This document shows, in pieces, positions 1 through 22,439 of a DNA stretch of 24,000 bases. The stretch lies in the NCBI RefSeq assembly GCF_000243315.1, contig NZ_JH597761.1:1048256-1072255 (forward strand), in the 5' to 3' direction. The stretch's first letter is position 1. Each line of letters opens with the position of its first letter. Origin of the DNA: Metallosphaera yellowstonensis MK1. GTDB lineage: Archaea > Thermoproteota > Thermoprotei_A > Sulfolobales > Sulfolobaceae. Both the position numbers and the translations under genes were made by a program. The notes below the pieces were generated by a model. The model was not told the DNA's origin. It worked only from the letters and a program-made list of their open reading frames with translations, and made no database searches.

Positions 1-1
1 C

Positions 2-274
2 TCATATGACATAACATCTGGAGTGCACGCTAACGTCAGTGGTCAGGTTCTGGCGATAAATATGGTTCCACCCGGATCTAATCTTGAGCTCTTACTGAAT
101 GCTCTACGAGATGCGATGAAAAGAGTTAAGATCTCTCTGGGTGTCGTGATTCCGTTTATGGATAACCTCTTTCAATACTCCAACGACTTGGAAGAAATGC
201 CTCTCCCGCCACAGATCCGGGACCTCGCTAGGGCAATATCAAAGGGTTATCAACTCGGTGAGATCATTAAATAG
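2..274 (+). CDS. ParA/MinD-like ATPase paralog, C-terminal fragment (5' end lies outside window)
   Basis: The reading frame is open from the window edge; the GTG at 23 is only the first start-like codon. The C-terminus aligns by eye with the 275-aa ORF at 18781..19608 (LAINMVPPG vs LVINMIPGK; VVIPFMDNLFQYS vs VLIPFIEELFEYS). Confidence 0.7.
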   Translation, partial: SYDITSGVHANVSGQVLAINMVPPGSNLELLLNALRDAMKRVKISLGVVIPFMDNLFQYSNDLEEMPLPPQIRDLARAISKGYQLGEIIK

Positions 275-493
275 CCTTTTGAGTATTTTCCTTCAGGACG
301 TTAGGAGTCCCAAACCCACACGTGATCTCTGAAGTGGGTGTTGGAGCTATCCCACTTTAGAACGTGAAGGTTTCCTCGTAATACCTGTGAAGTTCTGAAG
401 TTTAGATTAAACACTGTGAACTCACTTGAAGCCAAGCCCCTCGTACACGAGTTCCACCACATCCCTCATCTCTACCGGTTCTACTACGTTACT

Positions 494-820
494 GAAGCCG
501 TGGCCAACAGTTTCAGACAAACCGTAAAGTTTATATCATTTCGTCATAAACTCTTATATGATGCTAAGGCCTAAGGAAGTCCGCCAACGCTTAGGAATAT
601 CCTATAGGTGTGGTTTCACCCTGGACAGGCAATTGAACGCGTCCCTCAACATCTCCCTCAAGATGTGCGGGTTTCCCCACCTCTTTCTCACTCCCACTGG
701 GAGTAGGTGGGTTTAGGTTACCCCGCTAAGGGGGCGGAGGGGTAACGGGTTTCCCCGCGACCCCGGTGAAGCTCAAGGGCTAAGGATTGGATACAAATTC
801 ATGAAAATTCAATGAAGCCC
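494..820 (+). mobile_element. Non-autonomous internal-deletion derivative (MITE-like) of an IS607-type element (serine recombinase + TnpB)
   Basis: 494..605 matches the reverse complement of 22439..~22330 (element 5' end plus the first 16 resolvase codons, MMLRPKEVRQRLGISY). 606..820 matches the reverse complement of ~21985..21772 (TnpB C-terminus CGFTLDRQLNASLNI... and the element 3' end). The deletion junction is at 605/606. Confidence 0.8.
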
Positions 821-919
821 GAACTCCATCTTCACGACTACTCCTATCACTTTGACGTCTAATGATAACCATCGGAGACCCCGATAAGGTTTTTAAATTA
901 ATCCAGGAATAAGTATTTT

Positions 920-1324
920 GTGCAGGCTTATAGGGTATTGCCATTAGTCCTAACAGCATTGGTGGCTTCCTTGGCTTACTACTTCAACAATTATTTTCTA
1001 CTCCTCATTGTACCCCCAGCCCTATACCTCCAATACGAGTTGGGTAGGGCACCAAAAATCAAGGATCAGCGTAGCCTAGAGAGGTACGTGAGGAGAGTTT
1101 ACGGCAAGAGATGTCAGGGAATGATAGTTTTTGACAAGAACGCCAGCTTATACGCCTTCTTCCCCTCGAGGATGAGGGACAATACTGCGGTCTTGAACGA
1201 GGAACTTTGCGTGATAAAGACCAACGGCGAGATAAGGGTCATGGGAGTATACGACGGAATAGAGGAGGCGTTAAAGTTGCTCTCAGCCGCTGGTAAACCT
1301 GAACTGAGTAACTCCAGGAACTGA
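920..1324 (+). CDS. Hypothetical membrane protein (two N-terminal hydrophobic segments plus a soluble C-terminal domain)
   Basis: 134-aa ORF with a GTG start. The A/T box tttttaaatta at ~889-900 lies ~25 nt upstream, typical of a leaderless crenarchaeal transcript. AGG/AGA Arg codon usage resembles neighbouring genes. No recognisable family. Confidence 0.5.
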   Translation: MQAYRVLPLVLTALVASLAYYFNNYFLLLIVPPALYLQYELGRAPKIKDQRSLERYVRRVYGKRCQGMIVFDKNASLYAFFPSRMRDNTAVLNEELCVIKTNGEIRVMGVYDGIEEALKLLSAAGKPELSNSRN

Positions 1325-1346
1325 TGAGAGACTGCAGAGAGACCCC

Positions 1347-1733
1347 TCACGCTCCAGTTTTACCGTCATTGGAATAATACTCGACTATCTTCCTTATGGC
1401 GACAGTATAGGGATAACCTTGAGGTAATGCCTTCGAGAGGCTCATGAGTAAGCTCTCAGGTATCCTCAGTCCGACAACCGCGTAAAGTGACGAACCGTCT
1501 TCACGGGACAGTATAGACTCCTTAACCTCGTCCTTTTCACTCAGGTATCTCCTCACCATGGAAATGATTAAGCCACTCTTGGTGGTTCCTAAATTTCTGG
1601 ACATGGAATCAAGCAATAAATTGGTACTCCTCCCCAATCTGAAGGTTATGGTCCTGAAGAACTCATCGTCAAGTATGATCTCTTTCTTCCCCCTATCCAA
1701 GTTTCTCACCCCCTTGTCTGACCATTGAACCAT
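1347..1733 (-). CDS. Tandem ribbon-helix-helix (CopG/Arc/ParG-like) DNA-binding protein, last gene of a 4-gene operon
   Basis: There are two consecutive beta-alpha-alpha RHH-like segments: RTITFRLGRSTNLLLDSMSRNLGTTKSGLIISMVRRYL and YAVVGLRIPESLLMSLSKALPQGYPYTVAIRKIVEYY. The ORF overlaps the 3' end of the upstream ParA-like gene. The true start may be an internal GTG/TTG nearer the ParA stop at 1693. Confidence 0.6.
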   Translation of the reverse strand: MVQWSDKGVRNLDRGKKEIILDDEFFRTITFRLGRSTNLLLDSMSRNLGTTKSGLIISMVRRYLSEKDEVKESILSREDGSSLYAVVGLRIPESLLMSLSKALPQGYPYTVAIRKIVEYYSNDGKTGA

Positions 1734-2403
1734 CTCCAGCGTTCGTCCTCAGCCCCAGCCAGGCAGACAGTTCCAGGATAGCTGAGATGACTCTCATATC
1801 CTTAGGGGGTTCTGGAGAAGGACCGTAGAGGATAAGTTGTTTTATTAAGGGAATCTTGACCACTTTCTTGACTCTCTCTATCTCTTCTGGGATCTCGTCC
1901 TTGACCATGTTGACAACTAACACCTTTCTATCATCAGCTTCTGGGAAGAAGTCAGGAGAGTTGAGAACCTCTAATGTCTTAGCAGCAGTGAAGGGATGTG
2001 GTGTGGTTAGTAGGACTAGGCTCAGGGAGGCCTTCCCGTGAGATATCTTCCCCTCGAGCTCCAATAGTTCGTGGGTAGGAGAAGATGCGTCAATGATCAC
2101 CAGGTCGTGTCTATCTAGGAGTCCAGGATAGACTGTCTGGAACTGTGTGAGTAAGCCAGGTGAAACCATGCCACCTAAGGATAGTATGGAGAAGTTACCT
2201 TGAGTCCAGTATAGGATCTGTGAATTACCGGAGTATAAGTCATTAACGTCCAGAAGACCTATTGTCCTACTTAGGCTCCTGGTGTAGTCGAGATCTAAGA
2301 TCAGAACCTTCCTGAACTTCATGGCCTCCTTTGCCAACCAGAGGGCCACAGTGGACTTGCCTGAACCTCCCTTCACTCCAGTGACTAAGATCCTTGTAGT
2401 CAT
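1693..2403 (-). CDS. ParA/MinD-family (SIMIBI) ATPase with deviant Walker A
   Basis: It has the N-terminal motif GVKGGSGKST (KGGxxGKS/T with signature lysine), then VLILDLD and a Walker B-like LVIIDAS. It is small (236 aa) with no N-terminal HTH, like type Ib ParA. Its ATG overlaps the stop of the upstream membrane gene (ATGA at 2400-2403). Confidence 0.85.
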   Translation of the reverse strand: MTTRILVTGVKGGSGKSTVALWLAKEAMKFRKVLILDLDYTRSLSRTIGLLDVNDLYSGNSQILYWTQGNFSILSLGGMVSPGLLTQFQTVYPGLLDRHDLVIIDASSPTHELLELEGKISHGKASLSLVLLTTPHPFTAAKTLEVLNSPDFFPEADDRKVLVVNMVKDEIPEEIERVKKVVKIPLIKQLILYGPSPEPPKDMRVISAILELSAWLGLRTNAGDGSMVRQGGEKLG

Positions 2404-3860
2404 ATGGTCACCCCCTGAAAGACGTAAGGGAAACTGTTAAGCGACATGAACAATGCCCAAAGGGCTAAGAACAAGAGAAGTGGGGTCCTCACGTCTTCCC
2501 TCAGCTTTGAGATCCCAAGCGAGGCTGGAATGAAGAGAGGTAGATCGATGATCAGGTTCTGTACGACCCCCAGAAATAGGGTGGCTAAGATTGACGACGA
2601 ATAAATCACGAACATGATCCTAGGGGTCGAGTTCATACCATAAACCACTATGAGGTAATACAAGAAGGTGTTGATGGTTCCCCAACTCAGGAACGCTACC
2701 TGCGTGAAGTAGTTTGATGTCGAGAACCCAACAGGTACTGAGAAAAACCCGGTCAAGATTAGAGAGAAGCCCAGTATGAAGGGAAATGAAGTGAAGAGGA
2801 CGTACGTTTTTAGTGGCTTCCCTATCTTTCTGGTTAGTAGGAAGGAAATCAGGCAAAAGAGCAATATGCCTCCTTCTATTTGGGCCCACGCATAGATGTG
2901 GGAGAACATGGAGACATATGAGGTTAAAACGCTCTGCCACACCTTGCCCTCAATTATGTAGGCCAATGACAAGTACATCAAAGAGATGGAGAATAGGTTT
3001 GCCTGCAGGCCTGAATATAGGAAGGTCAGCAACGTCGGCGAGACTACAGCCATGAAGGACGACAGGGGTCCTAGCCCAGGTTTTACTGCCTCTCCCAACT
3101 TGTAGGACGAGATCCACAGGAGGACGGTCAACACGGGAAGCTGTAACTCCCCCATAATCGAGGGACCCAACAGTCTGGCGAAGGGGAAGAACATGAGAAG
3201 GTAGAGGGGTCTCGAGAAGAAGAACCATCCCATGGTGGGGGACTCCCACCACTGGGAGTAATACCTCCAGTCCACAGTCTCAGGAACGTGTAATGAGTTG
3301 AGTTGAGTCATAGGGATCAGAGTTATCACGAGACCAAGCAAGACCGCTAAGACTGGATTGATACTCTGAGGTTCTACATCCTCCCCCCTAACCTTGAGCC
3401 CGTAAAGGATGCCAGCGAATAGTACAACGGGTATTAGGATAGGTGCACCAGCCTGGACTACGGCCATAGGTATGGCCAGTGGGTTGAGTCTGATACCTAA
3501 CAAGGCGAAAATGACGTAGGTTAACCCAAAGGCATCAATAGCAAGCAATATTTCCCTTGCGAAGGTCGGTAAAGCTCTCACCGAGCTTACGGCTATCAAA
3601 AGCACGACGAGGGACACGTACTCCACGGGAACCAAATAGGAGAGGAAAGCTATGGGCAAAGAAAAGACGTAATAACCCATTCTGGTAGAGAGAGCTAAAG
3701 CAGAGGCTATGACCAGCAACTGTGCCAGGAGTGGGGAATACAGGAGATGCAGAAAGGTGGTCCTCCCCAGAGTTAGATTAAGTCCGAAGGAGAACGTAAC
3801 CGATAGGAAGGCAAGGCCCACAGAGAGCCAAGAGACGTCCTCCTTTCTGACCAGGATCAA
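2400..3860 (-). CDS. Polytopic integral membrane protein (>10 predicted TM helices), family unknown
   Basis: 486-aa ORF that is almost entirely hydrophobic helices with short loops (WWESPTMGWFFFSRPLYLLMFFPFARLLG). Its TTG start overlaps the TGA stop of the upstream gene (TTGA at 3857-3860), and its stop overlaps the ParA start. Confidence 0.8.
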   Translation of the reverse strand: MILVRKEDVSWLSVGLAFLSVTFSFGLNLTLGRTTFLHLLYSPLLAQLLVIASALALSTRMGYYVFSLPIAFLSYLVPVEYVSLVVLLIAVSSVRALPTFAREILLAIDAFGLTYVIFALLGIRLNPLAIPMAVVQAGAPILIPVVLFAGILYGLKVRGEDVEPQSINPVLAVLLGLVITLIPMTQLNSLHVPETVDWRYYSQWWESPTMGWFFFSRPLYLLMFFPFARLLGPSIMGELQLPVLTVLLWISSYKLGEAVKPGLGPLSSFMAVVSPTLLTFLYSGLQANLFSISLMYLSLAYIIEGKVWQSVLTSYVSMFSHIYAWAQIEGGILLFCLISFLLTRKIGKPLKTYVLFTSFPFILGFSLILTGFFSVPVGFSTSNYFTQVAFLSWGTINTFLYYLIVVYGMNSTPRIMFVIYSSSILATLFLGVVQNLIIDLPLFIPASLGISKLREDVRTPLLLFLALWALFMSLNSFPYVFQGVTI

Positions 3861-4321
3861 CGTATCACCCTCCTGAGGACGAGATAGAGTTGAAGCCCGG
3901 CGAGAATTCCTAAAGCTGTCAGGAGGTTGAAGGGCAGTAAATCAACATGACCGGCAAGCGACCAGAAGTCTGGAGGACTCTCGTTTGCTAAACCTGGGAA
4001 GTTAGCGTACACTAGCCTGGTGGTCTGTCCATGGGAGACCTCCTCCAGTAGGACGTGATTGTAAGATATGACGATGATGGTGTTACCCTCTACAGATTCT
4101 ATTGCAGGCACATTATTGTTACCCAGCACGTAGTTAGAGGGAGTTCCGGTCAGCTGTAGGGCGAGAATTGAAATTGGCCATGCCGTGGAGTAGTTGAGCA
4201 CAGTGTGTGTTGTCGGATCTACGGTGATTAAAACCGAGCTATGATTGGTGAAGTTCAGTAAGTAGAACACGTAGGTTATACTGCCGTTAGTGACCACCTC
4301 GTATCCTAGGAAGTAGAACAT
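3857..4321 (-). CDS. Small sequon-rich protein with a single C-terminal TM anchor and basic tail
   Basis: 154 aa with five N-x-S/T sequons (NGS, NFT, NHS, NYS, NES). The C-terminus LLPFNLLTALGILAGLQLYLVLRRVIR is a TM helix plus a positive tail. It is the first gene of the operon, with a TATA-like box ~25 nt upstream. Confidence 0.65.
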   Translation of the reverse strand: MFYFLGYEVVTNGSITYVFYLLNFTNHSSVLITVDPTTHTVLNYSTAWPISILALQLTGTPSNYVLGNNNVPAIESVEGNTIIVISYNHVLLEEVSHGQTTRLVYANFPGLANESPPDFWSLAGHVDLLPFNLLTALGILAGLQLYLVLRRVIR

Positions 4322-4342
4322 GTGAGGATAGGGCCCCTCCCG

Positions 4343-4351
4343 ATTTTAAAG
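4343..4351 (-). promoter_or_regulatory. TATA box for the minus-strand 4-gene operon (leaderless start at 4321)
   Basis: The minus strand reads CTTTAAAATC, 22-30 nt upstream of the ATG at 4321. It shares the octamer CTTTAAAA with the putative arlB TATA. Confidence 0.5.
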
Positions 4352-4973
4352 GGAAGTGAGAGTTTCGACTTGCAATCTTCATCCGACTACGACTTCACGG
4401 GTCGCAACTATGTTTCGTTTAGACCGGATGGGAACTAACCGGTCTTTGGACAAACGTACACGATTATCATGCGGTATAAGTTGTGAGCTCAAAGGTACAA
4501 GGTTCAACGTTGACGAGACGAATGCGTCATCTCCTGGGAATGGGTACGACAAAATTTGTTTTGTTAACTTTATTTGTCAACTTTCTAGGCTAATCAAAGA
4601 TTCAGATCAATCGGAGACAGAGTCTTACTTATTTGGGAAGAGCGAAGATCTATCTATGTGTGATCCTCTGGAACATACGTGTCCGAAAGTTGTAAAGGTG
4701 TCCTTGGAATATAAATCAATCCCTTAAATCCGATATAATCCTTAAAAGTTAATTTAATGAATCTTATCGGAGGTGTTTTGACAGCACCTCCTGAATTATG
4801 AACGAGGCCTTAGGGACTCTAGTGCCAACGTATCATTTATTTGAAATTAATGTTGTTTAAATATAAAAAAGATTAAATATTCTGTGTAAACGACGTGAGA
4901 ATTAGAGTGGCGCTTTTACGTTTTCATTTGCTAACAGCTTACCATACGATCATCAGTCGAAAGATCTGAGCAT

Positions 4974-4981
4974 CTTTAAAA
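4974..4981 (+). promoter_or_regulatory. Putative arlB TATA box, followed by a short 5' UTR with a Shine-Dalgarno-like GGAGTGA (5007-5013)
   Basis: CTTTAAAA lies ~40-45 nt upstream of the arlB ATG (5020). GGAGTGA lies 7 nt upstream of the ATG and resembles the anti-SD complement GGAGGTGA. Confidence 0.5.
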
Positions 4982-5019
4982 CAGGGCGTAAACCCACCCA
5001 ACTAAAGGAGTGAAAGCGG

Positions 5020-5934
5020 ATGGGAAAACTCAAGAAGGTGGTCCAAAGCTATAACAGGCTAGTCAGGCGTAAGGGTCTAGCAGGCCTAGATACTGCGATA
5101 ATTCTAATAGCTTTCATAATAACTGCTTCGGTACTAGCCTTCGTAGCTATAAACATGGGACTATTCGTCACGCAGAAGGCAAAGACTACAATAAATAAGG
5201 GTGAAGAGACTGCGTCGACTGCACTGACTGTTTCCAGTTCAGTGCTTTATGCAGTTAACTATCCAACAAACTCTAAGAGCTATTGGATCTATTTCACTGT
5301 GAGTCCCACGTCTGGGGTTTCGAGCGTTGAGCTGGATCCGGCGACCACGGGACTCTCCTTCGTGGCGACACAGGAAGGCTTAACGTTATCAAATATATAC
5401 AAATATACTCTATTAACTGTTCCAAATCCAGGGACACTATATAGTACTGTTAGCGGGAGTTACCTGACATTACAAAATAACGTGAGCAGTGGAGGTAACA
5501 CCTATGTGTATTACCCAAACCCCTACTATGCTCTCCTGGCACTCAATGAAACTCTCGGAAAAAATATGAAAAATTCACCTATCTATATAAATTATACAGC
5601 TTATACAGTACAGTCGCCAGAGCCGGTTTGGCTTAAGCATGATAATAACTTCACTTTTACGCTGACGATAAATGGTAATACGGTCAAATATTACGTCTTC
5701 GTCAATCAGACATTCGCTTTCTCATTTCCCGTTGCTGGTGACCCATTAGTGGGTAGCGCAATAGCCCCAGCAGGTTCGACCATAGGTTTCATGATACTGT
5801 TTGGTCCTAACGTCGGCAGCCACATCTTCGAATATCAGACCATAAATATCCAAATAACGCCCAACATAGGATCCCCGCTGACCCTCTCAGAGTACATCTA
5901 CCAGCCAGAAGGGTCCGTGACTTCCATAGGATAA
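5020..5934 (+). CDS. arlB: Archaellin (FlaB/ArlB) with class III (type IV pilin-like) signal peptide
   Basis: The N-terminus MGKLKKVVQSYNRLVRRKG|LAGLDTAIILIAFIITASVLAFV is a basic leader plus G/L cleavage context plus a hydrophobic helix, typical of archaellins. There are several N-x-S/T sequons (NVS, NET, NYT, NFT, NQT). It is the first gene of a canonical Sulfolobales arl operon. Confidence 0.95.
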   Translation: MGKLKKVVQSYNRLVRRKGLAGLDTAIILIAFIITASVLAFVAINMGLFVTQKAKTTINKGEETASTALTVSSSVLYAVNYPTNSKSYWIYFTVSPTSGVSSVELDPATTGLSFVATQEGLTLSNIYKYTLLTVPNPGTLYSTVSGSYLTLQNNVSSGGNTYVYYPNPYYALLALNETLGKNMKNSPIYINYTAYTVQSPEPVWLKHDNNFTFTLTINGNTVKYYVFVNQTFAFSFPVAGDPLVGSAIAPAGSTIGFMILFGPNVGSHIFEYQTINIQITPNIGSPLTLSEYIYQPEGSVTSIG

Positions 5935-11287: not shown

Positions 11288-11535
11288 CTTCTGGAGAGTT
11301 CAGCCTTCATCGTGACTAATAGTCACTTTTCGTGACTATTAATCACTTAGCCTCATCACTCCTTCTCCCTCTCCATGCCGTCTACGGGAGCGGTAGTTAA
11401 ACCACTCCCTTCAAGGACATGGGGAGTTTCATTGGGTGCCTTCCTCCACCTCGCAACTGCTCATAGACTTCATAGTGGCACCTCCAATTTAATGTTATCA
11501 CAAAAATTTATAAATTTTTCCGCTACTTACAAGGT

Positions 11536-13033: not shown

Positions 13034-14356
13034 TTAATATGCTTCCTCAACGAATATGGGAGTTTCAAGCATAGCCAAAAATAGCGGTATCGGGATAATA
13101 CTATCACCGATTTGGTCTTTACTGACATACACGAACTTCTTTACCTTCCCCAATACCTTTTTACTCCCCTCCCTCACCTTTCCGTACTTGACCTCAACAC
13201 CAAGATACTCTTCACCCCGTCTAACTATTATGTCCACCTCACCGTTAGTCCTGGCATAGCCCACCTCGTAGAGCCTTGAAAGGTGGGCAATCGTAACAGC
13301 CTCTGCCAGTTTCGGGTAGTCTAGGGGCTTACTCATGGTCCACCTCGTGAAACTGTGGTAAATAAATGGGTCTATGAAGTAGAACTTCTTCAGTTTTTTG
13401 TGTAGGGGCAAACCCGTGTTTACGTCCATAGTATCAACGACCTCCATCAAGTGTAACTTTTCCATTAAATCGACGTAACTTATAGCAGTTTTTACAGTCC
13501 CAACGCCGTAGTCTTTTGAGATGGTGTGGAAGCTGTACTCTGACGACGCTCTCTCAACTATCGCCTTTGCTGTGAGTTTGAAGAACCTCTCACTCCTCCT
13601 TAACTTGTTTATATCACTTATGATACTTGAGATGAAGTCTTCTTCAGTAGTTTTGTTAACCCTCCCCTCGTTTATGAAGTCCTTTATGGCGTTTGGAAAC
13701 CCTCCCGTAAGTAAGTAGTTTTCAAACACTTCCTTCAGCTTGGGCAGGTAACCCACGTACTTGGTGTAGTTATCTAGGACGAATTGTAAGTCCCCTGTAG
13801 GTATGTTTATACCGAAGAGTTTGACATATTGTGAAAAGGGGAGGGGAAGCATTATCAAAGTCCTCCCCTTTCCCCTCCTACCTGGAAAGGTCTCTGTTTC
13901 CCCTTTGGCCTTAATTGACAGAGAGCCAGATAATATTAGTACGTCGTTACTGAACTTCCCCACATCGATCCTGTGTTTAATGCTCCTAAACCAGTCTTTG
14001 GGGAAGGTGACTTCGTCTAATATGATGACTGAACTCTTAACTCCTTCCCTTCTCCTAATCTTGTCGTATTCCTCTAAAATCTCGTCCAACTCCTTATAAT
14101 CAGCCAGTTTGTCGCAAGCGAAGTAAAAGATGGACTTAGGGTTATAACCCATCTCCAGTAGCTTTTTCACGAGGAGTATCAACGCCGTACTTTTACCCAC
14201 TTGTCTTGGGCCGAACAAAAAGTTTAAGGAGTAGGGTTGGAGAGATATGGGGAGTTCCACTTCCCACTTACCTTTTGATTGCTGGTACTTCTTATAGCAT
14301 TCGTTTTCAGAGATGAGCCCTGGTGAGAGCCACCATGGGTTTTGTTCCTCAATCAT
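13034..14356 (-). CDS. AAA+ ATPase of the archaeal COG1373-like family (AAA_14 + DUF4143-like region) with a C-terminal PD-(D/E)xK-like motif
   Basis: It has Walker A GPRQVGKST, Walker B VIILDEV, the N-terminal NPWW signature typical of this family, and C-terminal GEVDIIV...GVEVKYGK. Confidence 0.8.
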   Translation of the reverse strand: MIEEQNPWWLSPGLISENECYKKYQQSKGKWEVELPISLQPYSLNFLFGPRQVGKSTALILLVKKLLEMGYNPKSIFYFACDKLADYKELDEILEEYDKIRRREGVKSSVIILDEVTFPKDWFRSIKHRIDVGKFSNDVLILSGSLSIKAKGETETFPGRRGKGRTLIMLPLPFSQYVKLFGINIPTGDLQFVLDNYTKYVGYLPKLKEVFENYLLTGGFPNAIKDFINEGRVNKTTEEDFISSIISDINKLRRSERFFKLTAKAIVERASSEYSFHTISKDYGVGTVKTAISYVDLMEKLHLMEVVDTMDVNTGLPLHKKLKKFYFIDPFIYHSFTRWTMSKPLDYPKLAEAVTIAHLSRLYEVGYARTNGEVDIIVRRGEEYLGVEVKYGKVREGSKKVLGKVKKFVYVSKDQIGDSIIPIPLFLAMLETPIFVEEAY

Positions 14357-14796
14357 ATGTAATTACACTCTACAAGGGTTTATAAAGCTCGTTTACTCTG
14401 ACTCCACAAGCCTTTATAAACGAAATGTGGCAAGGGATTGTCCTGAGTGGAGATAACTCAATGAATATGAAATGACAGAGATGTAATATTACACCTAATT
14501 GAGAATAAAGGAGAATTACCTTCACGCGTCGCTGAGCTCCGTTTGCCCCTACACTTTCATTTCACTCATCTTATGTTCAATCATGATGGAGTGCAGGGAC
14601 TTAGCCCTCAGCCACCTACCAGCCTTAACGGTAGGTGGGTCACGGAACTCCTTGGAGCCCAAGGGCAAGGGACTCACATCTCTGCTATCACTCCCACCCC
14701 TTTGGGCTTAGCCCACATCGGCGTGAGAGGTCATCCTTTATCACCAAAAAAAGATTTCTGTTAACACGAAAAAGGATTCAGCCCATCTGAACGTTG

Positions 14797-15816
14797 TTAG
14801 AAAACAGGTATGAAGTCCTCCTCCTTGAGATCCTTGACTTCTTCCCCGGTTATTCCCAACTCCGGGATGGCCGGCATGGGAACCCCGTATCTACTCAAGG
14901 TAGATCCTACCCTGAGTATAGCCATCCTCCACGCCTCTTCCTTCTCCTTAAGTTCAGGGATATAGAATCCGGCCTCCCTGGCCAGATCCTCCATGTGCTC
15001 GTTAACCTCCTGGAACCACGATGGCAGTCTCCAGAAGTCCTTGGGAGGCCTATATGTTATTAAAGAGAGGAACACGAAGCCTGCCCTGACCTGTTTCGAT
15101 ACGAGTTTCTTCCTCTCCTCGCTCATGGAGGACGCGTTCTCAGTCATAATGAGATGAGTGAACGCATAGTGTCTGGTTTCGTCCACAGCAGTCTTCTTGA
15201 ACAACTTGGAGAACTCCTCCACTTTCGCCCCCTTGGACATGGTACTGAACACGGTGGTGGCTGCAGCTTCCCCCATCATGAAGGAGGTAAAAAGGACGTC
15301 CATGGTGTATTTACTGTAAGCCTCTAGGTATGCCTTCCAGTATCTCGACCCGTTATACCAGGCCCATAGGGTATTGAGCTTAACCTTCCTCTCCAACTCA
15401 TCCTGTGGCTTAAAATTGAAGGGATACCCGGGAAGGACGCTATTGATGGCCAGTCCGCACATGACGTTGTGTCTGTTCTCGTCGAAGGTTATGGTGGTGA
15501 GCACTCCCTTAACTGCGGTGTCGAGGTGCAGTTCGTGTGCCTTTACTAGCGCATAGGCGAATACAGGGGTAGCGTTATCAAAGGTGGAGAGTAGTGACCA
15601 CCAGTAGGCTATGGCCAACCTCTGTTTCCTGTCCAACCCTGACGCTATCTCCCTGACCCTGTTCCAGTCTATCTCCTCCTCGTCCCACTGTTCCCTCTTG
15701 GCCCTCCTGTAGAGTTGCCAGGCCCTCTCATTGTCGAAGTTCCACCTGGGAGGGTAGACGTTGAACTCGGGGAAAATGGGTTCAAGCTCGTAGTTTACAG
15801 ACATCCTCTCACTCAT
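14797..15816 (-). CDS. Ferritin-like di-iron carboxylate protein (ribonucleotide reductase R2-like / di-iron oxygenase superfamily)
   Basis: It has two ExxH motifs (FDENRH, VDETRH) plus upstream acidic ligand candidates (STFDN, MMGE). The N-terminal segment QWDEEEIDWNRV...LDRKQR resembles R2 helix 1. Oligo-T tracts lie on the minus strand downstream of its stop (14746-14753). Confidence 0.65.
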   Translation of the reverse strand: MSERMSVNYELEPIFPEFNVYPPRWNFDNERAWQLYRRAKREQWDEEEIDWNRVREIASGLDRKQRLAIAYWWSLLSTFDNATPVFAYALVKAHELHLDTAVKGVLTTITFDENRHNVMCGLAINSVLPGYPFNFKPQDELERKVKLNTLWAWYNGSRYWKAYLEAYSKYTMDVLFTSFMMGEAAATTVFSTMSKGAKVEEFSKLFKKTAVDETRHYAFTHLIMTENASSMSEERKKLVSKQVRAGFVFLSLITYRPPKDFWRLPSWFQEVNEHMEDLAREAGFYIPELKEKEEAWRMAILRVGSTLSRYGVPMPAIPELGITGEEVKDLKEEDFIPVF

Positions 15817-16895: not shown

Positions 16896-16998
16896 CTGAT
16901 CGCCGGGGCTGATGAAAATCTTTAAGTTACGTTAAAGTCCCATAACTGCTGAAGATTTAATGAAGAGATTTAAAGGAATACAGTGCTATATATTATTG

Positions 16999-17784
16999 AT
17001 GTCTGATAACAAAATAACAAGGTTTTCAATTTTCGGGTTTAAGGGAGGAGTGGGTAAGTCTACCGTAGCCTACTTCCTAGCCAGGGATCTGGCCATGAGG
17101 CATAGAGTTCTCCTTGTGGATCGAGATTACACCAACACTATAGGTAAGATCTACGGTTTGGACACTGGAATAATCAACGTGCTGGCTGACGGTGTGGAGG
17201 GAAAGTTCTTGGCAAGGGATGGAAACCTGAAAGTACTATCCTTAATATCGTTTCAGCCCAGAACCCTTCCCGCATTGGAGGACTTCGCCCGTTCATATTC
17301 CCAGGTACTGGAAGATGTAGATGTGGTTGTCACTGACAATCCTCCCAACCTCGATGACATAACTAGGATAGAGGCGCAGGGGTATTATAGGGCTAGGGGC
17401 GAGTTCCACTGTAACGCAATAGTGGTAACTACTCCAGGTCTGGCCCTAAGGCTCACCTTGGAACACCTAAACGAGATATCCTCATCGCTTAGAAGCTGGG
17501 TTCCAGAGGCTACGTACACTAGATTGGTGGCATTCGTGGTCAACATGGCGAGAGAGAATGTAGACGTGGAAGTACCCAGGAAGGTCGTAATACCATTCTA
17601 CAGGGACATGTTATTCAAAGGATTTAGGGAGGTCCCTGAACCTAAGGAGATGGAGAAAGTGCTAGAGTATGCTGAGCAGGCAATAGCGGGGGGGGGTCCC
17701 TGTTCTATGATAAAACAAACGACAAACCTCGCCCCTTCTAGGAACGGGGTAAAGTTCTTGACTCAGACCTACTCTTACTTCTAA
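16999..17784 (+). CDS. ParA/MinD-like ATPase paralog with an aberrant C-terminal tail
   Basis: It has Walker A FGFKGGVGKST, VLLVDRD, VVVTDNPP and FVVNM. I prefer the ATG at 16999 (MSDNKITRFSIFGFKGG), with ATTTAAAG ~25 nt upstream, over 16960. The last ~30 codons run through a G9 tract (17688-17696) and direct repeat copy 2, so the native C-terminus appears replaced. Confidence 0.75.
   Translation: MSDNKITRFSIFGFKGGVGKSTVAYFLARDLAMRHRVLLVDRDYTNTIGKIYGLDTGIINVLADGVEGKFLARDGNLKVLSLISFQPRTLPALEDFARSYSQVLEDVDVVVTDNPPNLDDITRIEAQGYYRARGEFHCNAIVVTTPGLALRLTLEHLNEISSSLRSWVPEATYTRLVAFVVNMARENVDVEVPRKVVIPFYRDMLFKGFREVPEPKEMEKVLEYAEQAIAGGGPCSMIKQTTNLAPSRNGVKFLTQTYSYF
17704..17734 (+). repeat. Direct repeat copy 2 (matches 15985..16015)
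   Basis: It has the same 27-bp core. It lies inside the 3' end of the ParA-like ORF, directly after the G9 homopolymer. Confidence 0.9.
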
Positions 17785-18780: not shown

Positions 18781-19608
18781 ATGAAAGGAAAAGTTTATTT
18801 TTCAGATCTTAACTTTCCACTTGTGCGTATATCCATAGTGAGTACTAAGGGTGGTGTGGGAAAGTCTACTATAGCTATCTCCCTTTCTAGGGAGTTGGCG
18901 GATAGGGGTAAAAGGGTTCTGCTAGTGGACATGGACCTATCTGGGTTTTCCTCCCTCATTGCGGGAATAAGGGAACAGGGCCTGATCTCCTCAACAGTTG
19001 ACGGTAACGATTCAAATTACCTAAGGGAAGTACACACTGGCAATGGAACGTTCACAGTACTCAAATTTTGCGGTGATGGACCTAGATTAAGGAGGGATCT
19101 TGAAGTAATTAGGGACAACGAATTCCTAAGAGAAGAGGTCATCGAGGCCTACTCCTCAATAATTTCCAGGGGTTATGACTTCGTAATCTTAGACAACAGG
19201 CCCTTAGCTAACCCTCAGGAGGAAGAAGCTGGGATCGAGTGGGAAGCTTTTAGGGACACGAAACAGGAAGAGAGCTATAGGATATACGTCACTGATGCCT
19301 CTGAGTTCGATATAGAGGACACGATCAGGTATCACGAGTGGCTTGACAAGGATCCACGCGATAATACGTTCCCTCTGACCCTTGTGATCAACATGATACC
19401 TGGCAAGGAGAGGATAGAAGAGATGAGAAGTAAGATTAAAGATGTAATGAAGCGAATGAGCGTAAGGATAGGAGTGCTCATACCCTTCATTGAAGAACTG
19501 TTCGAATATTCAGGTTCACTTGACGGTATGCCCAGATTGGAACAAGTAGGAAAGTTGGCTCAAAGGTTGCTTGACAGTAGCCTGGAGGATTACATCGTAA
19601 TCGAGTGA
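18781..19608 (+). CDS. ParA/MinD-like ATPase paralog (orphan, no partner gene)
   Basis: It has Walker A STKGGVGKST, VLLVDMD, FVILDNRP, LVINMIPG and the C-terminal IPFIEELFEYS motif shared with 2..274. The start may instead be the GTG at ~18823 (MRISIVSTKGG). Confidence 0.8.
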   Translation: MKGKVYFSDLNFPLVRISIVSTKGGVGKSTIAISLSRELADRGKRVLLVDMDLSGFSSLIAGIREQGLISSTVDGNDSNYLREVHTGNGTFTVLKFCGDGPRLRRDLEVIRDNEFLREEVIEAYSSIISRGYDFVILDNRPLANPQEEEAGIEWEAFRDTKQEESYRIYVTDASEFDIEDTIRYHEWLDKDPRDNTFPLTLVINMIPGKERIEEMRSKIKDVMKRMSVRIGVLIPFIEELFEYSGSLDGMPRLEQVGKLAQRLLDSSLEDYIVIE

Positions 19609-20153: not shown

Positions 20154-20912
20154 TCAGAACGTGAGGAGATCGAGCCCAACTTTGTCCAGGGAGCTCATCC
20201 ATTGCAGGAACTTCTTGACGTTATCTCCCTGGAACACTGAACCGTGCTGCGGAGCTATGAAGTCTATTTGTAGGCCTCTTATCCTGTTCAACCAGAGCTC
20301 TATGGCCTTCCTGCTCGGTATGTACCTCCTATGGAAGGCCTCCATCAGTTTGGCGTGTTCTTCAAAGTCCTCGACGATCAGGTACCAGGTACCTTTAGGG
20401 AATATGGCAGCTCCCATGTCGCCAGAGAAGTAACCCCTGGAGATGGGGTCATAGAAGTGAAAGTTCCCAGGAGAGTGAAGGAAGTGAGCTGGTATCGCCT
20501 CAATGAAACTCGACCCAAAGGGGATCCTCATCCCCATGTCGGGTATTTCGTTGATCTTCTCACTTACCTCCTGGCCGAGGTGTGGAAGGAATCTCTCCCA
20601 GAGCTCGGACACGTAGATCTGTGCGTTTGGGGCCACGTCGACCCATAGGTTGAGTGCACCTACTACGTCCGGGTCCTGATGGCTGAACAGTAGTAGCGAG
20701 ATGTTCTCAGGCTTCAAGAATTCCTGGACAGAGTTCAATACTCTTTCGAAGACGAAGTAACCTCCAGCGTCAAGTATCGCTCCCTTTTCTCCGTCCCTGA
20801 TTAGGTATTGGTTTGTGAGAACTCCCTTCTCTGCATCTGACTCATCAAGACCCAACCATATGAAGGAGTGATCTTTCTCTTCAAAGATTACATAAGGCTT
20901 ATGTACTTTCAT
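20154..20912 (-). CDS. Metallo-beta-lactamase-fold protein resembling the di-iron domain of flavodiiron/ODP proteins (no flavodoxin domain)
   Basis: It has NQYLIRDGEKGAILDAGG, then SHQDPDVVG (an H-x-D-x-D variant of HxExDH), then AHFLHSPGNFHFYD, SGDMG and APQHG as further ligand candidates. It is 252 aa. The start region overlaps the upstream gene's stop (ATGA at 20909-20912). Confidence 0.7.
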   Translation of the reverse strand: MKVHKPYVIFEEKDHSFIWLGLDESDAEKGVLTNQYLIRDGEKGAILDAGGYFVFERVLNSVQEFLKPENISLLLFSHQDPDVVGALNLWVDVAPNAQIYVSELWERFLPHLGQEVSEKINEIPDMGMRIPFGSSFIEAIPAHFLHSPGNFHFYDPISRGYFSGDMGAAIFPKGTWYLIVEDFEEHAKLMEAFHRRYIPSRKAIELWLNRIRGLQIDFIAPQHGSVFQGDNVKKFLQWMSSLDKVGLDLLTF

Positions 20913-21771: not shown

Positions 21772-22439
21772 GGGCCTCATTGAATTTTCATGACTTTGTA
21801 TCCAATCCTCAGCCCTTGGGCTTCACAGGGGTCACGGGGAAACCCGTTACTCCGCCCCCTTAGCGGGGTAACCCCAACCCACCTACTCCCGGTGGGAGTG
21901 AGAAAGAGGTGGGGAAACCCGCACATCTTGAGGTAGATATTCAGTGATGCGTTAAGTTGCCTGTCCAGGGTGAACCCACACCTCTCACACTTGAAAGTCC
22001 TACCTTTCGGGATAAGCTATGGCTATTTTAGAAACCTCGTTATTGAGTATCATTCTAAGTAACTTGAGGGACCCTTCCTCTTCACGTTCAATGAAGATCC
22101 CACGTCGGTTATTACCTGGTAGTATTCCTTAACGTTCTCCTCGAGGTACTTAACTTGGTTCACTAGATCGTCCTTTCGTGTGTTTGATGATACCCTAGCG
22201 TATAATATTACTTTCCTCTTTCTAACAATACCCATTAACTTCTCTAGGTCCTTCTCCCTGAACCTCCACTTCCCAATCTCTAGTACAGGTTTAATGTAAC
22301 CCTTCTTAACATATTCCCTAACTGTAGCATAGGATATTCCTAAGCGTTGGCGGACTTCCTTAGGTCTTAGCATCATATAAGAGTTTATGATGAAATAATA
22401 TAAACTTTACGGTTTATCGGAAACTGTTGACGAGGCTTC
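21772..22439 (-). mobile_element. Second internal-deletion derivative of the same IS607-type element (retains resolvase N-terminus and TnpB C-terminus)
   Basis: Both ends match element A (494..820) in inverted orientation. The interior keeps 108 resolvase codons, then jumps into the TnpB zinc-ribbon/RuvC-III region (FKCERCGFTLDRQLNASLNIYLKMCGF...KVMKIQ*). Confidence 0.8.
22050..22376 (-). pseudogene. Truncated IS607-family serine recombinase (MerR-like HTH plus start of the resolvase catalytic domain)
   Basis: MMLRPKEVRQRLGISYATVREYVKKGYIKP is the HTH, ILYARVSSNTRKDDLVNQ is the catalytic Ser region, and ITDVGSSLNVKRKG follows. The ORF terminates about half-way through a normal ~200-aa enzyme. 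Confidence 0.8.

Follow-up and report, generated by a model that had tools for sequence, protein, structure and literature searches.

What does an operon that combines a ParA/MinD-class ATPase and a ribbon-helix-helix (RHH) protein with two membrane proteins do at the archaellum locus of Metallosphaera yellowstonensis MK1? The question is raised by a stretch of 24,000 nucleotides from this organism (contig NZ_JH597761.1, positions 1,048,256 to 1,072,255; hereafter the window, whose own numbering is used throughout), in which four minus-strand genes stand head to head with arlB, the archaellin gene. The answer that we favor, and to which we give a roughly even chance, is that the two membrane proteins belong to an archaellum-accessory membrane module that is co-regulated by ArnR and contains a protein of the glycosyltransferase GT-C type, and that the ATPase and RHH genes are a lineage-specific insertion into it. 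The locus bears on the modification and regulation of crenarchaeal archaella and possibly on their placement. What is known of these archaella comes almost entirely from Sulfolobus acidocaldarius, for which we found no labeled homologue of the larger membrane protein, and our literature searches, including those by locus tag, retrieved no description of the operon genes.

The first gene of the operon (3857–4321) encodes a protein of 154 residues, p154, and is followed by the genes for p486, a polytopic membrane protein of 486 residues with a TTG start (2400–3860), the ATPase of 236 residues (1693–2403; Pfam family CbiA) and the RHH protein (1347–1733). A previous reading of the letters alone (the sequence-only reading) had placed these four open reading frames (ORFs) correctly, and the stop/start overlaps that it described are exact, with TTGA at 3857–3860 joining p154 to p486 and ATGA at 2400–2403 joining p486 to the ATPase. 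A third overlap, at 1693–1733, holds in full only if the RHH gene starts at ATG 1733, which gives a protein of 128 residues and an overlap of 41 nt. The TTG at 1700 is the more likely start, since it has GGGGGTGAG upstream and agrees with the public annotation of a 117-residue product (P0016, locus L005); the overlap is then 8 nt. The 128-residue version is 99% identical to a protein named from M. yellowstonensis. Strong GGTGA Shine-Dalgarno sites precede the three inner genes (GGAGGGTGA ahead of the p486 gene and GGGGGTGA ahead of the ATPase gene). The p154 gene has no such site; its ATG lies 22 nt past a TATA box and it is read as leaderless. A leaderless first cistron followed by internal cistrons led by Shine-Dalgarno sites is the usual layout of Sulfolobales operons. 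The gene overlaps are seen again in other genomes' versions of the locus, which is also present on JGI hot-spring contigs. As judged from the overlaps, the Shine-Dalgarno sites and the leaderless-first pattern, the four genes form a real single transcription unit with coupled translation, as had been claimed. On the other side the arl operon runs on the plus strand from 5020 in the order arlB (5020–5934), arlX, arlG, arlF, arlH, arlI and arlJ, which bears out the head-to-head arrangement.

To place these genes in other genomes, the loci of p486 homologues were fetched and homologues of every window protein were mapped onto them. Because homologue searches with the 128-residue and 154-residue proteins gave just near-identical sequences, the orthologues of these two proteins were drawn from the fetched loci. 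The p154 and p486 homologues are overlapping neighbors, divergent from arlB, in eight of eight Sulfolobaceae lineages with enough flank, and the linkage to arl is tight in every one of them. The idea that all four genes make up one conserved cassette did not hold. A ParA-like/RHH pair between p486 and p134 is confined to three Metallosphaera species and Acidianus sp. HS-5, the latter with an ATPase of 186 residues and a plain 66-residue Pfam RHH_1 partner. The pair is not in this slot in Saccharolobus, Sulfolobus sp. S-194 or Candidatus Aramenus, and in Ca. Aramenus no ParA-like ORF lies behind the p486 homologue. The gene for p134 (about 134 residues), which in the window lies at 920–1324 on the plus strand, convergent with the operon, directly follows the p486 homologue with a 4-nt ATGA overlap in Saccharolobus and starts a few nucleotides downstream of it in Sulfolobus sp. 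S-194; in Metallosphaera and Acidianus it is positioned after the pair. The Sulfolobaceae metagenome-assembled genome (MAG) L012 shows a further arrangement, in which the p486 gene is followed by a different ParA paralogue, an ArnR-like regulator, a p154 paralogue, a membrane-anchored ParA-like protein and the p134 homologue. Because the ParA/RHH pair is found in this slot in Metallosphaera and Acidianus only, the conserved unit, by gene order, is p154, p486 and p134, and the ATPase/RHH pair is a lineage-specific addition. Core and add-on genes all lie within one arlB-divergent neighborhood that includes arnR. The p134 protein consists of an N-terminal transmembrane hairpin and a basic domain of about 95 residues that is probably cytoplasmic, and its glycosylation sequons are not enriched (5 versus 6.7 expected).

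Two contigs in this comparison are irregular. In the Ca. Aramenus MAG L010 (8143–10055) the p154 and p486 homologues are both split by frameshifts, which reflect either decay or errors of sequencing. Contig L009 (174–1586), binned as 'Thermoproteus sp. AZ2', opens with this same p486 sequence and then becomes GC- and Ala-rich, suggesting that it is chimeric or misbinned.

The two divergent promoters have the same construction. The arlB promoter (4946–4981, plus strand) consists of ACGAT-CATCA-GTCGA (4946–4960), AA-N11 and the TATA box CTTTAAAA (4974–4981), and that of the p154 operon (4344–4379, minus strand) consists of AAGAT-TGCAA-GTCGA (4365–4379), AA-N11 and CTTTAAAA (4344–4351); both therefore read GTCGAAA-N11-CTTTAAAA with the same spacing. 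The sequence-only reading rightly noted the same box, CTTTAAAA, in both promoters. With four copies in the window versus 1.1 expected this is by itself an ordinary TATA box, however, and the informative element 11 nt upstream had been missed. That element, GTCGA, is the exact right half-site of the ArnR box, TCGAC-N5-GTCGA; in S. acidocaldarius this box, at −43 to −84 of flaB, is required both for promoter activity and for the binding of ArnR (PMC6396743). The 24 kb contain exactly two copies of the composite GTCGAA-N13-TTTAAA versus 0.2 expected, a count that none of 100 shuffles reaches, and the octamer AGTCGAAA is invariant upstream of the p154 gene in four species, within otherwise divergent DNA, and is found upstream of arlB as well. 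The Metallosphaera locus L001 has a perfect arlB box (TCGAC-TTTGG-GTCGA) at the same position and a p154 box with one mismatch. Saccharolobus has an intergenic region of 122 bp with one central palindromic box, common to both genes, between two TATA boxes. This shared layout suggests that the p154 operon is co-regulated with the archaellum by ArnR and so is probably switched on with it. In Acidianus sp. HS-5 the p154 paralogue likewise has an ArnR-box and TATA composite directly upstream of it (L007, 13514–13545), which suggests a wider ArnR regulon.

The arrangement resembles the ArnR regulon of S. acidocaldarius in two respects. A GTCGA half-site or full box is found just upstream of the B recognition element (BRE) and TATA box at arlB and p154, and in S. 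acidocaldarius the arl genes share their regulation with the gene of a small membrane protein that is situated between arlB (flaB) and arnR. That gene, Saci_1179, is conserved in Sulfolobales fla loci and falls into the ArnRAB iModulon together with the arl genes (PMC4307647, PMC8578740); from its position it may correspond to p134. In contrast, the published ArnR regulon (PMC6396743, PMC4307647, PMC8578740) contains no GT-C-like or ParA-like gene. The results point to a set of conserved and unstudied accessory genes that share the arlB control region. As for the region itself, the arlB/p154 intergenic DNA of the window (4322–5019) measures 698 bp versus 122 bp in Saccharolobus, about 550 bp extra; a 123-residue ORF within it (4356–4727) is without support, and one same-species contig calls a 105-residue gene there.

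The nature of the module depends foremost on p486. Its many hydrophobic spans and 23 predicted helices confirm that it is polytopic and agree with the at least eight transmembrane helices of a GT-C protein. Only about 15 close homologues were found, all from Sulfolobaceae (Metallosphaera, Acidianus sp. HS-5, Saccharolobus, several Sulfolobus spp., Ca. Aramenus and MAGs) and all annotated as hypothetical, and a Pfam scan of p486 and these homologues returned no domain. An AlphaFold2 (AF2) model built from 14 sequences is of moderate confidence (predicted local distance difference test, pLDDT, 65.8; predicted TM-score, pTM, 0.63). When this model was searched against the PDB with Foldseek, the best 16 matches were GT-C folds except for transporter/receptor entries at ranks 13 and 15; among them are ArnT, yeast and human STT3, PglB, ALG9 and PIGU, with AglB, PMT and EmbB further down. 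Structure prediction, which the sequence-only reading had named as one way to check p486, thus puts GT-C folds on top with probabilities of up to 1.0, but with low TM-scores (0.27–0.35) and weak E-values (0.07–5).

A profile search of 1.84 billion representatives extended the family to 154 remote relatives, of which 55 have E-values below 1e-10 and are mostly 560–600 residues long; they are homologous to p486 across its full length (hhalign E 4e-49). The motifs T-x-G-R-x-T, P-x-x-V-D-x-x-Y-Y, R-P-L-Y-L, S-P-x-x-L-x-F-x-Y-x-G-x-Q-A-N and H-x-[WY]-x-W-x-Q are common to them, the second containing Asp197 (D197; PETVDW in p486 itself) and the last His321 (H321; SHIYAWAQ). The remote relatives all have D197, and nearly all of the close Sulfolobaceae homologues keep it. 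This residue sits in a loop (residues 182–217) that is followed by a short amphipathic helix and is placed outside the membrane by the positive-inside rule alone. When 40 remote relatives were scanned with Pfam, sub-threshold matches were obtained to PMT_2 (4/40), STT3 (2/40) and DUF6541 (1/40); P0042, the one inspected in detail, scores 20 bits versus a cutoff of 26.1. One relative carries the UniRef name 'Glycosyltransferase RgtA/B/C/D-like'. All four relatives whose surroundings were sampled lie near glycan genes: GT2, GT4 and a Polysacc_synt flippase for P0036, GT4 and a phosphodiesterase for P0025, an adjacent 250-residue GT2 for P0034, and GT2 and an epimerase for P0053. With moderate confidence, from these relatives and the model, we take p486 to found an undescribed branch of the GT-C superfamily, and this probable membership points to glycosylation rather than to a generic complex to be positioned. 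If so, p486 is a candidate for a new glycosyltransferase family, in an order for which surface glycosylation enzymes other than AglB have been called elusive (PMC11607397). Two other identities were rejected. A transporter does not fit, as transporter and G-protein-coupled receptor fold matches have probabilities below 0.1 and the PDB profile search gave noise only, and an archaeosortase does not fit, as p486 has no conserved Cys.

A comparable gene set is pilA-tfpW-tfpX of Pseudomonas aeruginosa, in which the pilin gene is accompanied by those for a GT-C enzyme and for a small partner that can be dispensed with (bioRxiv 10.1101/2020.04.19.049825). In both sets the major filament-subunit gene has beside it the genes of a polytopic protein of GT-C type (a probable one for p486) and of a small accessory protein, and the accessory gene is not conserved everywhere. 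Unlike TfpW, to which it has no detectable sequence similarity, p486 lacks a large C-terminal periplasmic/tetratricopeptide repeat (TPR) domain and has its conserved Asp in PETVDW and not in a DDX motif after the first transmembrane helix (TM1). Its gene is divergent from the subunit gene rather than downstream of it, and its activity and acceptor are predicted only.

Another conserved member of the module is p154. It was described as a C-terminally anchored protein with five sequons, and both features are confirmed: a C-terminal transmembrane segment (hydrophobic span 128–153) is followed by an RRVIR basic tail, and sequons are found at N12, N23, N26, N43 and N113, five versus 1.98 expected (p=0.03). 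Across nine p154 orthologues the count is 53 versus 19.3 expected, a 2.7-fold enrichment. Neither Pfam nor NCBIfam contains a match to p154. It does have a paralogue family of about 161 residues (hhalign 97.5%, E 8.6e-12), which adjoins an ArnR-like regulator in every genome examined (L005 16544–17029, L001 14852–15328, L004 12817–13302, L007 13571–14062 and L008 3302–3805). Sequons are 3.6-fold enriched in this paralogue, and three sequon columns are fully conserved, one of them at residues 5–7; p154 has conserved sequon columns as well, which p134 does not. The sequon enrichment and the positive-inside rule indicate that p154 is probably an N-out, C-in surface glycoprotein. A pilin carrying a signal peptide of class III was also considered for p154 and rejected, as the protein has no hydrophobic N-terminal helix.

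From these data we propose that p154, p486 and p134 constitute an accessory module of the archaellum locus throughout the Sulfolobaceae, which would be switched on alongside the archaellum by the starvation activator ArnR. In this module p486 would work on the outside of the membrane, taking sugar from a lipid-linked donor and passing it to an acceptor associated with the archaellum. This acceptor could be the glycosylation sub-domain of ArlB; p154 and the paralogue beside ArnR are the other candidates, and p154 would be a partner or a substrate of p486. Archaellins of the Sulfolobales have a glycosylation sub-domain that is specific to this order (PMC11607397), and all five ArlB sequons lie in the corresponding region, at N154–N229.

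The position of the p154 paralogue, always beside the membrane-bound regulator ArnR, also fits another explanation, in which p486, p154 and p134 serve the ArnR sensory pathway as signaling or scaffold parts, with p154 and its paralogue as extracellular co-sensors and p486 as a non-catalytic GT-C-like scaffold similar to PIGU. All of these genes are interleaved in one same-strand cluster in MAG L012, an ArnR-box promoter precedes the paralogue in Acidianus L007 as well, and the top fold matches of p486 include PIGU, a subunit of the GPI transamidase that has a GT-C fold but is not catalytic. We nevertheless consider a sensory role unlikely, because very distant relatives of p486 all keep D197, H321 and a number of Arg, Tyr and Trp residues in a manner that resembles an active site, and because these distant relatives occur in glycan-synthesis neighborhoods and not beside regulators.

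The proposal of an ArnR-controlled glycosylation module has evidence against it as well. With regard to ArnR, the left half of the box is degenerate in the window, with three mismatches at p154 and two at arlB, and bare ArnR boxes at up to two mismatches are not enriched there, so that the case is built on the half-site, the spacing and the conservation. Deletion of Saci_1179 left archaella regulation undisturbed (PMC4307647). Neither p154 nor its paralogue of about 161 residues has a recognizable signal peptide, which leaves the export of the N-terminal domain unexplained. For p486, the family profiles gave only noise against the PDB, and a model with a pLDDT of 66, Foldseek E-values of at least 0.07 and TM-scores of at most 0.35 stands beside the lack of any Pfam or PDB sequence match. 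Moreover, its conserved Asp comes after about seven helices, unlike the textbook GT-C arrangement with the Asp after TM1, and p486 would thus have an N-terminal extension or an atypical topology. The cassette holds no gene for a lipid-sugar synthase or a flippase. Finally, no homologue labeled S. acidocaldarius was among the p486 homologues found; since this organism is motile, the module would not be essential for archaellation.

The ATPase is, as proposed, a small protein of the ParA/MinD class with a deviant Walker A motif. In this motif, GVKGGSGKST, residues K11, G12, G13, G15 and K16 are invariant among 10 orthologues and paralogues, as are D37 of Walker A' (LDLD) and D105 of Walker B (VIIDAS); N165 is conserved and the family also keeps a VKIPF motif. 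The protein scores 33.4 bits against Pfam CbiA, for which the gathering cutoff (GA) is 25.4; with the AAA_31 and ParA models it stays just under the cutoff, and with all NCBIfam equivalogs far under it. Among PDB entries the family profile is closest to archaeal MinD (1ion, 2.8e-11), followed by CFD1, PF-32, CapB and FleN, and matches Sulfolobus SegA (7dut) at 1.7e-8; these alignments cover the N-terminal half only.

Type Ib partition pairs such as ParF-ParG and delta-omega consist of a small ParA that has no helix-turn-helix (HTH) domain at its N-terminus and an overlapping RHH gene downstream. The sequence-only reading assigned the present pair to this type, and the architecture does agree, down to the basic N-terminal tail, probably a flexible one, of the RHH protein. 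The assignment to a partition module does not follow, however. The pair is chromosomal and embedded in a membrane-protein operon, window positions 1–5100 contain no centromere-like iterated repeats but only short two-copy ones at chance level, and a tblastn search of 72,556 plasmids and 50,697 phage records found no relatives of the ATPase, so that it is not plasmid- or virus-borne. Unlike ParF or SegA, its profile is closer to archaeal MinD. In the reading that we favor, the ATPase/RHH pair is not a chromosome or plasmid segregation system. Three specific identities were rejected: SegAB, as there was no direct PDB match to SegA and the family profile matches 7dut more weakly than archaeal MinD; a plasmid or viral partition module, as the tblastn search gave no matches; and a bacterial tyrosine (BY) kinase, as there is no Tyr cluster. 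With BcsQ and BY-kinase-type relatives the ATPase shares a ParA/MinD fold encoded with what would here be a membrane glycan-handling complex. It differs from them in NCBIfam and PDB scores far under the family cutoffs, in lacking the C-terminal tyrosine cluster and in having no polysaccharide co-polymerase partner.

Could the ATPase instead position or count a membrane complex? Tethered to DNA through the RHH protein, it would then act on p486/p154 or on the archaellum motor and would be for Crenarchaeota an analogue of MinD4 or FlhG. ATPases resembling MinD or FleN are known to accompany archaeal type IV filament loci and often adjoin them (PMC4858521), and MinD4 positions archaella in Haloferax (PMC4858521; bioRxiv 10.64898/2026.04.22.720090). 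The ATPase belongs to the same superfamily as MinD4 and FlhG/FleN, its gene is likewise linked to a motility-filament locus, its catalytic motifs are intact and it is translationally coupled to membrane proteins. In addition, M. yellowstonensis has about seven ParA/MinD paralogues no farther than about 15 kb from arlB and every other locus has several, a dense cluster of such ATPases at a motility locus, and one paralogue in L012 has N-terminal transmembrane helices. Yet about half of the lineages with p154, p486 and p134 beside arlB do not have the pair in its slot, and no centromere-like repeats accompany it. The ATPase is no orthologue of MinD4 or FlhG/FleN, with which only its N-terminal half aligns, and unlike them it is paired with an RHH protein. 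Inspection of its C-terminus by eye revealed no clear amphipathic membrane-targeting helix; the C-termini are variable and the last helix corresponds to the terminal fold helix of the paralogues. We regard a positioning role as unlikely.

The RHH protein contains one RHH domain, at about residues 26–65. The N-terminal half of its orthologue in the Metallosphaera locus L001 matches Pfam RHH_3 (23.2 bits versus a GA of 21.6), and the N-terminal half also aligns with the RHH_1 proteins of neighboring loci (hhalign 76.5%, E 2.2e-5), which supports its assignment as RHH. The sequence-only reading saw two RHH domains in one chain, and here only the first was recovered by profile methods. The C-terminal half (about 82–121) reaches E 0.19 with CopG_antitoxin and hhalign values of 0.3–0.4% with RHH profiles, in register but without significance, and hhalign gave no signal of an internal duplication. 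A single-sequence AF2 model of low confidence (pLDDT 49.8) has the order b-a-a / b-b-a-a. A fold search with this model was uninformative; AvtR (4hv0) and the F-plasmid relaxosome chain 9f0x_F appeared only as insignificant matches, and searches against viruses gave just weak ones (E 0.4–3). F-plasmid TraY is a single-chain tandem RHH regulator, and another is AvtR of Acidianus filamentous virus 6 (PMC5569661). The present protein resembles both in its length, within about 100–130 residues, and in a predicted b-a-a / b-a-a order that would permit a monomer-binding pseudo-dimer. It differs from them in that its second RHH repeat is undetectable by sequence and its model is of low confidence. 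A tandem RHH in one chain is a plausible candidate reading, for which AvtR is a natural precedent.

We suggest that the small ATPase and the overlapping RHH gene form a second layer, which would have been inserted into the conserved module; the ATPase comes from the paralogue family that crowds the arl/arnR neighborhood. Most likely the pair acts as a local DNA-bound regulatory switch that would autoregulate the operon or the shared intergenic region, or control the membrane module. Since half of the lineages do without the pair, it is most likely a regulatory addition and not part of the core of the machine.

Its patchy distribution is also what would be expected if the pair were a domesticated or decaying element of the partition or toxin-antitoxin type that inserted by chance and has no functional tie to its neighbors. 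It is placed exactly at a gene junction, mobile-element remnants are close by, and the RHH partner differs between Acidianus (the 66-residue RHH_1 protein) and Metallosphaera (117–128 residues). This is nonetheless a very unlikely explanation. No plasmid or virus homologues were found, the Walker motifs are conserved between species at 35–39% identity, the ATGA overlap and the strong Shine-Dalgarno site have been kept, and the slot that holds the pair is the same in Acidianus and the three Metallosphaera species. In L012 an unrelated ParA paralogue fills this slot, which argues for selection for a ParA there.

The regulatory reading of the pair and the glycosylation reading of the module combine into a stronger claim. 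In most Sulfolobaceae except S. acidocaldarius, an ArnR-controlled module would glycosylate the archaellum at the outer face of the membrane by means of a new GT-C family and a signal-peptide-less N-out glycoprotein, and in Metallosphaera and Acidianus it would be placed under a nucleoid-referencing ParA/MinD-RHH switch. We consider it rather unlikely that all of these parts are correct together. If they were, an archaellum accessory complex would for the first time in Crenarchaeota be seen under ParA-type control, spatial or temporal, and this control would belong to a broader network of ParA/MinD paralogues around arl and arnR that is so far undescribed. The individual components, namely GT-C, ParA/MinD and RHH proteins and ArnR-box promoters, are of known kinds; their combination, the GT-C-like family, its linkage to arl and the ParA paralogue cluster are undescribed. 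Tractable relatives to which the locus is relevant are S. islandicus REY15A and M. sedula.

The paralogues of the ATPase are distributed as follows. Further full ParA/MinD-like genes lie at 16960–17784 and 18781–19608 of the window, both on the plus strand, and positions 1–274 (plus strand) hold the C-terminal end of another, which matches a 267-residue gene of L005. Three more are found just outside the window beside the ArnR-like gene (L005, 18169–20767), and similar clusters occur in Metallosphaera L001 and in S. islandicus. In L012 a ParA/MinD-like protein of 328 residues (13599–14585), encoded between the p154 paralogue and the p134 homologue, has an N-terminal hydrophobic region that apparently anchors it in the membrane.

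The window contains traces of mobile elements, one of them an HTH_17-like fragment to the left of p134 (558–716). The same-species contig L006 (11963–19000) departs from the window right after p134 and continues with HTH_17/MerR, PLD-nuclease and DEAD-helicase genes; the cassette thus borders a strain-variable region. The other such trace is a 108-residue ORF with HTH_17 and resolvase-N domains at 22050–22376. Three minus-strand genes of the window have no evident tie to the operon and encode an AAA_14/DUF4143 ATPase (13034–14356), an AurF/ribonucleotide-reductase-like di-iron protein (14797–15816) and an ODP-family metallo-beta-lactamase (20154–20912). Directly downstream of arlJ and in antisense orientation, at 11369–11442 on the minus strand, is a strong Rfam match to the Sulfolobus small RNA sRNA133 (Sso133), with a score of 93.6 bits and an E-value of 4e-18.

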